Part shown: piece after piece, positions 18,012 through 19,237 of the stretch
Position numbering within the stretch: position 1 is the first letter of the stretch
Layout of the letters: each line of letters starts with the position of its first letter
Made by a program: the position numbers and the translations under genes
Notes under the pieces: model-generated
What the model was told of the DNA's origin: nothing
Database searches by the model: none
The model's input: the letters and a program-made list of their open reading frames with translations, nothing else
Source of the DNA: Candidatus Heimdallarchaeota archaeon
Lineage (GTDB): Archaea > Asgardarchaeota > Heimdallarchaeia > Heimdallarchaeales > Kariarchaeaceae
Assembly: GCA_015523565.1 (NCBI GenBank)
Contig: WAKA01000061.1
Coordinates: forward strand, 1 to 34,640
Length of the DNA stretch: 34,640 nucleotides
Direction of reading: 5' to 3'

Positions 18012-18476
18012 ATGAAGCCATTTAAAAAAGCAGTATTGGGAGGGACTTTTGATAGGCTACACAGTGCACATAAAAAACTTCTGGAAACAGCCGCATGCCT
18101 TGCACAGAATGTGTTCATTGGAATTGTTGGAGATGCACTTGGAAAAAAACTTTTTCCAAAAAAGAAACATAATGAGCTCATCCAACCCTTTAATGTTCGA
18201 AAAGAAAATGTGGAAAGTTTTATGAAAAAATTCAGGTGTAACGTTGAAATCGGTGAGCTTAAAGACCCATGGGGACCTGCACCTTATGATGAAAATGCAG
18301 ATCTGATTGTAGTGTCAGAGGAAACAAAACCTGCTGCAGAAAAGATCAACGAAATGAGAAAGGAAAATAATTTACCACCACTTCATATATATGTCATTGA
18401 ATGGATAATTGACAGGGATGGAAAGCCTATTTCGTCTACAAAGCTTCGGGAGAAAGAGGCTAAATCCTCCTCTTGA
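18012..18476 (+). CDS. coaD: Phosphopantetheine adenylyltransferase (archaeal/eukaryotic type)
   Basis: LGGTFDRLHSAH, DPWGP, IVVSEET, ISSTKLR. Confidence 0.9.
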   Translation: MKPFKKAVLGGTFDRLHSAHKKLLETAACLAQNVFIGIVGDALGKKLFPKKKHNELIQPFNVRKENVESFMKKFRCNVEIGELKDPWGPAPYDENADLIVVSEETKPAAEKINEMRKENNLPPLHIYVIEWIIDRDGKPISSTKLREKEAKSSS

Positions 18477-18939
18477 ATTTAGCCAGCCCGATTGCAATGG
18501 TGCCAATAGAACCAATGTCTCCCACAGGAAGCTGTACAGTTTCCCCCATATCCAAATCCTTTCTTGAAAGACCAGGGTCACTTCCACCAAAGACAATGGC
18601 AACCTTTTTACCCTTTAGACTTTCCACAAACTCTTCATCCAGTTGCTTATCCCCATATGGTGGAGGAGCCACTAGAACCAATGCTTCAGGTGAGAAAAGA
18701 TCAACAATGTCCTGTAGACCATTGAGGAAAAGAAAATTAACACCAGCCCTATACGCAAGTTTTTGTGCATTGGGAATCCCTTTCTGTGCAGCAGATCCCT
18801 GTGCCTGTGAAATGACAATCGTCCGATATCCCAAGCCAATGGCAATCCTGACAAATTCTGTACATCGGTTTGAGGAATTGACATTGTGCATTACAACAAT
18901 TGGCCACTTGTTGTCCATACCCAAAGTGAACTTCGCCAC
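18460..18939 (-). CDS. DUF2122-like SPOUT-fold protein (putative RNA methyltransferase)
   Basis: HNVNSSNR, GSAAQKGIP, knot-like VFGGSDPGLS, IGSIG. Confidence 0.75.
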   Translation of the reverse strand: MAKFTLGMDNKWPIVVMHNVNSSNRCTEFVRIAIGLGYRTIVISQAQGSAAQKGIPNAQKLAYRAGVNFLFLNGLQDIVDLFSPEALVLVAPPPYGDKQLDEEFVESLKGKKVAIVFGGSDPGLSRKDLDMGETVQLPVGDIGSIGTIAIGLAKFKRRI

Positions 18940-19088
18940 TATTTGAAAAATGCCATTGTTTCGCTATTCCTTAACAATCTCTCACTTAATTTTTATTGTT
19001 ACCTAATTTAATTCTTAAATACCACTCTGTTTTAACTAAGTATGTAACATCAACCACGGTTGATATGCGGAGGGTTCTCCTACCAGAA

Positions 19089-19211
19089 AGTTAAGCCCAG
19101 CATCGGACGACCCATGTACTGATTTCCGCGAGGGATCGGGAAAGGCGTCACGCTGTATTACGATTACGGTCATAGAGCCGGTGTGCACCCAGAAACATTC
19201 CGAACCTGGAT
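19089..19211 (+). rRNA. rrf: Circularly permuted 5S rRNA gene (3' half 19089-19157, linker 19158-19164, 5' half 19165-19211)
   Basis: The 3'-half motifs AGTTAAGCCC, TGTACTG, GCGA loop and GGGAAA precede the 5'-half motifs TACGGTCATAG, CACCCAG and 13-nt loop C ending CCGAAC; helices I-V can be paired. Confidence 0.88.
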
Positions 19212-19230
19212 AAGAAAGCAACTGTTGCAT

Positions 19231-19237
19231 CTTTTTT
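19231..19237 (+). terminator. Oligo-T terminator candidate of the 5S precursor
   Basis: CTTTTTT directly after the trailer that pairs with the leader. Confidence 0.45.

Follow-up and report, generated by a model that had tools for sequence, protein, structure and literature searches.

Organization of the 5S rRNA locus

The analysed window (the whole 34,640-nt stretch of contig WAKA01000061.1 of a Candidatus Heimdallarchaeota archaeon, class Heimdallarchaeia) carries at positions 19089-19211 of the plus strand a circularly permuted 5S rRNA gene, in which the 3' half comes first, followed by the capped helix I and then by the 5' half. The 3' half (19089..19157, +) comprises the 3' strands of helices III and II, helices V and IV, loop E and the 3' strand of helix I. 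It is followed by a linker loop (19158..19164, +), which connects the native 3' end to the native 5' end in helix I, and by the 5' half (19165..19211, +), composed of the 5' strand of helix I, loop A, helix II, the 5' strand of helix III (19187-92), loop C and CUGG-AU. The two halves were delimited by covariation and by an HMM derived from 36 normal-order (canonical) 5S genes: in genomic order the locus gave two swapped matches, to HMM positions 50-108 (3' half) and then 4-50 (5' half). When the sequence was de-permuted and joined at the predicted junction, a single continuous match was obtained (positions 4-108, 38.7 bits, E 2.6e-11), which was aligned end to end with only one inserted base, located at the junction. 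As expected of a permuted gene, RF00001 gave no match above the gathering score in genomic order, either in the window or in the whole host genome (3.57 Mb, 90% complete), and Rfam scans of the window at gathering and E-value cut-offs revealed no 5S match.

A covariation check against 13 relatives revealed that helices I-V are kept in 91.8% of cells (34-51% paired in slid controls) and that both sides have changed in 20 of 34 base pairs. This indicates that the locus is a conserved permuted 5S gene, broken in the bulge of helix III, with the native ends joined by the loop 19158-64. It is the sole 5S detected in the host genome, which also encodes uL5 and uL18.

Upstream of the gene there is a TATA-like box (19014..19021, +), a putative promoter of the tandem 5S transcript (see below); a similar T/A box lies at the same distance in genomes G000-G003, of which G000 is the host genome. 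A short 5' leader hairpin (19049..19064, +) is present also in G001 and G002. Downstream, a small hairpin with a T-run (19219..19237, +), not picked up by the feature scan, may act as a terminator. Directly 3' of the 5S gene, and likewise in G001, lies a gene for a YlqF/RbgA-like GTPase (MMR_HSR1 and RsgA matches; 19273/19285-20079, +), whose listed ORF start (19183) falls within the 5S gene and is not the true start. The divergent gene on the other side (18460-18939, minus strand) encodes a DUF2122 (RecB-family nuclease-like) protein, and is found near the 5S gene also in G001-G003 and at five loci of family f2.

The locus is a collapsed tandem pair

DNA contigs of two runs, X1 and X2, contain a joint at which 19211 is followed, after 33 letters, by 19083. 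The depth of this joint (6.7 in X1, with flanks at 6.45/4.51; 26.4 in X2, with flanks at 27.7/23.5) is that of the unique flanks, and we therefore conclude that the locus is a tandem pair with a period of 162 nt, collapsed by the assembler. The repeat unit (19083..19211, +) occurs twice on the real chromosome, separated by a 33-nt spacer that is absent from all other contigs of the host assembly. The runs carrying the sequence are hydrothermal-vent and hot-spring metagenomes, and those used for the contigs are DNA; no RNA run is among those listed, which carries no information on expression. The assembly may stem from the sample behind X1 or X2. In two further studies (runs X3 and X4), loose ends were found at 19211, continuing with spacer-like letters.

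The same two tandem units have been assembled in the sister species G001, each with its own leader and trailer. Comparison with this genome revealed that the window combines the unit 1 leader with the unit 2 trailer and switches from copy 1 to copy 2 somewhere between about 19100 and 19156. A mismatch in helix II of the window (A19099.C19179) is resolved after rebuilding into an A-U pair in copy 1 and a G-C pair in copy 2. The underlying variants are A19099G, phased by the contigs, and C19179T, whose phase was derived from pairing and from the linker order in G001. The loop at 19158..19164 is the copy 2 version of the helix I linker; in copy 1 its place is taken by an 8-bp helix closed by a triloop. 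A third variant contig in X1 may represent a strain or a further copy. The two units are probably carried on a single transcript. At locus L105 (genome G077), too, permuted 5S units form a tandem pair, and each unit has a leader/trailer helix of its own.

A strict BHB motif surrounds each copy

A strict bulge-helix-bulge (BHB) motif, i.e. a 4-bp central helix with two 3-nt bulges on its 3' sides and flanking helices, is present in both rebuilt copies and in family members, and absent from the collapsed window sequence. Both copies form a 3-4-3 structure with the central helix CCAG/CUGG, two 3-nt bulges and the inner helix GUU/AAC. The outer helix of copy 1 is CUCCUA/UAGGAG (6 contiguous pairs, bulge AUU), and that of copy 2 is UGCUUUCU/AGAAAGCA (8 contiguous pairs, bulge AUA). 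The leader strand of the outer helix of copy 1 (19073..19082, +) has its true partner at the start of the unassembled spacer, and the same pairing occurs in G001; the trailer strand of copy 2 (19213..19222, +), identical in copy 2 of G001, pairs with the spacer end. The central strand CCAG of the leader, a decoy of the 5' strand of helix III, is followed by the bulge AAA (19083..19089, +), with a predicted cut at 19088/19089. The opposite strand (19203..19212, +) contains AAC, CUGG and the 3-nt bulge, with a predicted cut at 19211/19212. The MFE structure of the rebuilt copy 1 precursor consists of the BHB and the 5S core, and that of the copy 2 circle has the canonical 5S shape.

In a preliminary description of the window, an excised 123-nt circular 5S rRNA had been proposed on the basis of a relaxed bulge-helix-loop motif requiring a broad-specificity enzyme. 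The strings on which it was built are all in place (CCAGAAA at 19083-89 and 19189-95, CUGG at 19206-09, AAC at 19203-05, AUA at 19210-12, UUCU at 19075-78, AGAA at 19213-16 and the T-run at 19232-37), and its central helix, AAA bulge and inner GUU/AAC helix are real and conserved. In contrast, its outer part (an internal loop, UUCU/AGAA and AUGCGG/UUGCAU) spans the two collapsed copies and is no true structure of a single gene. In the sequence as assembled, the proposed motif is not formed in the MFE fold (z +1.41; 0 contiguous outer pairs), nor is the canonical 5S shape. The relaxed character is thus an artefact, which arose because the assembly joins the copy 1 leader to the copy 2 trailer, whereas both true copies are strict BHBs. 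In practice, the collapse of tandem 5S units in assemblies produces spurious 'relaxed' motifs. The proposed cuts, product size and junction are unchanged after rebuilding and agree with the comparison described below.

Comparative evidence for cutting and joining

The motif proved to be conserved in relatives: a BHB-type structure is formed by a locus's own leader and trailer at 97 of 104 loci from 18 families. When leaders and trailers were swapped between families, the structure appeared in only 7.7% of 9302 combinations, and in 21% of swaps within the host family. The outer helices of the loci have little sequence in common. In the host family, the leader strand co-varies with the trailer strand (CCAG/CUGG, CAAG/CUUG, CGGG/CCCG, CGGA/UCCG and CGAG/CUCG) and so tracks the changes of helix III through five distinct central helices.

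Archaeal EndA cuts after the second base of the bulge. Applied to the 65 single-step loci from 17 other families, this rule yields the canonical NNGG-AA-GUUAAG, although the allowed registers were fixed with the data already in view and, for two of them, the canonical junction is in part a consequence of how they were defined; a freer register search mostly agreed on the same junctions. Three pairing registers were found among the loci, one of which, register C of other families, is relaxed on the leader side. In the host family the same cut leads to AUA at 9 of 9 loci, consistent with the earlier claim of a product one base longer than the canonical one. Of the bulge bases, those predicted to remain in the product do not vary there (AU + A, 9/9), whereas the discarded ones are variable.

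At loci of families f2 (L006-L013, L016, L029-L051, L064-L066) and f18 (L140, L142), the leader strand is duplicated around a covarying hairpin, roughly 30 nt 5' of the 5S core. In-silico ligation of the first BHB creates a second BHB at 30 of the 31 loci of these families, with 4/4 central pairs and the canonical junction; the flanking helix of this second BHB is imperfect in several loci. This predicts two successive splicing steps, giving a circle of about 153 nt and then one of about 121-123 nt. Moreover, four permuted genes (L107, L161, L162, L164) contain a 30-nt BHB intron in the conserved loop C. The intron site is identical in a Heimdallarchaeia family and a Loki family, and removal of the intron restores CCGAAC. 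Both the nested second BHBs and the loop C introns would be hard to explain without ligation. The permuted gene is the only type of 5S copy detected in the host genome, and its termini form a BHB, i.e. the arrangement that characterizes the SRP RNA gene of Thermoproteus tenax.

Distribution of permuted 5S genes in Asgard archaea

A covariance model of the permuted 5S detected the gene in 79 of 83 genomes of Heimdallarchaeia, representing all 7 families; nearly all matches were full length and a few were partial. RF00001 was above the cut-off in 4 genomes of this class: two of the matches look bacterial and lie on short contigs, another is an intron-containing gene on a probably foreign contig, and one overlaps a permuted locus. 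The closed genomes G015 and G020 have two permuted copies apiece and no canonical 5S gene. The second copies (L063 in G015, L062 in G020) are devoid of the first leader strand and have a different trailer; they either use the single-step register or are degenerate.

A search of 151 genomes of the phylum revealed strong permuted matches in 14 more Asgard families, among which are Odinarchaeia, Jordarchaeia and a Promethearchaeia (Loki) family; the compared genomes are kin, and such counts overstate independence. Normal 5S genes occur in other families, namely f11 (25/26 genomes), f17 (17/19), f20, which contains Borrarchaeum (3/5), f15, f27 and f28, and the two types are nearly mutually exclusive by family. 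These results indicate that the permuted layout is common to most of the Asgard families sampled. A family-specific pattern scan gave zero matches. In a loose pattern scan of all GTDB genomes, 5 of the 80 loci listed were permuted, all of them from Asgard archaea, and the non-Asgard archaeal matches among those listed were normal 5S genes. In G155 (family f14), the permuted 5S at L163 (minus strand) is apparently split elsewhere, at the start of loop C; a different split point may lie behind the finding that the model matched only 13 of 25 f14 genomes.

Proposed processing pathway and alternative explanations

The host genome encodes a catalytic EndA subunit closest to that of Aeropyrum pernix, an (alpha-beta)2 enzyme (E 1e-26), with the Tyr/His/Lys motifs and a CSL-like insert aligning to the crenarchaeal-specific loop (for CSL function in EndA, see PMC6379350), as well as a second EndA-family subunit and RtcB. 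The catalytic subunit gene is adjoined by an ORF (L018:1848-3110) with many GGPNLGGAP repeats.

In each unit the whole 5S sequence occupies the position of an intron, with leader and trailer pairing into a strict BHB. We propose that the (alpha-beta)2-type splicing endonuclease would cut after the second base of each bulge, and RtcB would join the ends into a 123-nt circle with the junction CUGG-AU|A-GUUAAG (in the host genus, GAACCUGGAU|AGUUAAGCCC). Once the leader is gone, CUGG could pair with the internal CCAG (19189-92), and GU with AC (19187-88), whereby helix III is formed. Capped at helix I by a short loop, the circle would then bind uL5/uL18 and serve as the ribosomal 5S rRNA. From the comparative evidence, we judge this pathway as a whole, i.e. 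excision of the permuted tandem 5S at the BHBs and ligation to a circle that functions in the ribosome, to be likely. Taken separately, ligation of the excised ends appears highly probable, and persistence of the ring is probable. A point against the proposal is that the host-family product would have the 3-nt bulge AUA where canonical 5S has AA.

A persistent ring is plausible because circular 23S rRNA is present in archaeal ribosomes (PMC12918454) and the SRP RNA of T. tenax and T. uzoniensis, the product of a permuted gene, is functional as a circle (Plagens et al. 2015, PMC4731332). In archaea, some circular rRNA intermediates become linear again, e.g. the 23S rRNA of Pyrococcus (PMC7758197). 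The same splicing may yield a circle that is only an intermediate, re-opened at the helix I linker to give an ordinary linear 5S, as in the case of permuted tRNA genes, which regain normal ends via a circle (cited in PMC4267664 and PMC10085705). Consistent with such re-opening, the two copies have different linkers, and the linker is variable in the host family, where the loops are 3-7 nt long and none is UNCG, so that re-opening stays conceivable there. However, the linker is only 3-7 nt long and has no BHB. Moreover, phylum-wide, 47 of the 68 distinct loci have a tetraloop as helix I cap, which is UNCG in 31 of 68; this resembles a retained cap rather than a spacer and favours its retention. 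We regard re-opening as rather unlikely.

The BHB might also merely release a linear permuted 5S, nicked in the helix III bulge. The mitochondrial 5S of brown algae is permuted in its final product (PMC4267664), and helix III could form without a covalent link. Against this stand the nested BHBs and loop C introns, which require ligation, the convergence of cuts predicted in different registers on the exact canonical junction, and the presence of RtcB, and we consider a nicked product improbable.

A single gene with the relaxed motif, as originally described, matches the assembled window, and a single-copy haplotype made by recombination is compatible with the contigs. This reading is very improbable, given that the junction contigs reach unique-flank depth in both runs, that loose ends with spacer-like letters recur at 19211 in two more studies, that both units are present in G001, and that the helix II mismatch of the window is missing from both rebuilt copies. 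Finally, the locus might be a pseudogene, or what is left of two normal 5S genes that fused, while the working gene escaped assembly (the completeness of the genome is 90%, and rRNA genes frequently go unrecovered). This is scarcely credible and largely refuted by the strong covariation, the class-wide presence with canonical genes almost absent even from closed genomes, and the complementary distribution of normal and permuted genes across the phylum.

Relation to known systems and implications

The closest precedent for a circular 5S produced as proposed above is the Thermoproteus SRP RNA. Both are structural RNAs with permuted genes, whose leader and trailer form a BHB, and both genes were missed by standard searches. 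For SRP RNA, cleavage by heterotetrameric EndA was shown and joining by RtcB was proposed, whereas the processing of Asgard 5S is deduced from comparison. The Asgard RNA differs also in being an rRNA, in occurring in many families of a phylum instead of some Thermoproteus species, and in having tandem units and nested BHBs. Archaeal pre-16S/23S rRNAs, including circular and permuted 23S, are excised at a BHB and ligated, as we propose for Asgard 5S (PMC7758197, PMC12918454). However, their genes have the normal order and ligation joins the native ends, while in the permuted 5S ligation would rebuild a conserved internal element; circularization was seen for 16S and 23S and not for 5S, which is not known to be processed in this way (PMC12918454).

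In Cyanidioschyzon merolae, the swapped halves of permuted tRNA genes are restored via a circle which is re-opened to give native ends (cited in PMC4267664 and PMC10085705); in Asgard 5S, a short loop, in many cases UNCG, seals these ends. The mitochondrial 5S of brown algae (Valach et al. 2014, PMC4267664) shares with Asgard 5S a hairpin replacing helix I, but it is broken at the three-way junction and yields a linear product with no BHB, whereas the Asgard break lies in the helix III bulge and has a splice signal. Heterogeneous circular 5S species exist in Halobacterium and Sulfolobus; unlike Asgard 5S, these derive from normal genes, vary at their ends and are interpreted as decay products (PMC12558985).

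No description of permuted 5S genes in archaea, including Asgard archaea, was found in the literature, in a search with most subscription journals outside its coverage. Wu et al. 2022 (PMC8813620) noted that 5S was not predictable in their Asgard genomes, two closed Heimdallarchaeum genomes among them, which is explained by the permutation of the genes. What is new here is that the locus has been resolved into two units, each with a strict BHB, that permuted genes have been counted across the class and the phylum, and that two-step splicing is predicted.

On balance, we lean towards the view that the ribosomes of most Asgard lineages, among them every sampled family of the class closest to eukaryotes, contain a covalently closed 5S derived from an excised and ligated 'intron' by the tRNA-splicing machinery, in some lineages in two steps. 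If so, EndA and RtcB would be essential for 5S biogenesis, the gene would be the first rRNA gene needing splicing to restore its order, and its product would be the first 5S that is circular by necessity. The eukaryotic ancestor may then have been obliged to retain a normal 5S gene or to regain one. The patchy pattern of normal and permuted 5S across Asgard families constitutes a new character bearing on eukaryote origins.

A normal-order 5S gene on contig C117 of G044 (L054:1501-1638, minus strand) contains a 23-nt strict BHB intron exactly at the permutation site. It possibly represents the ancestral state; the contig is probably derived from another archaeon.
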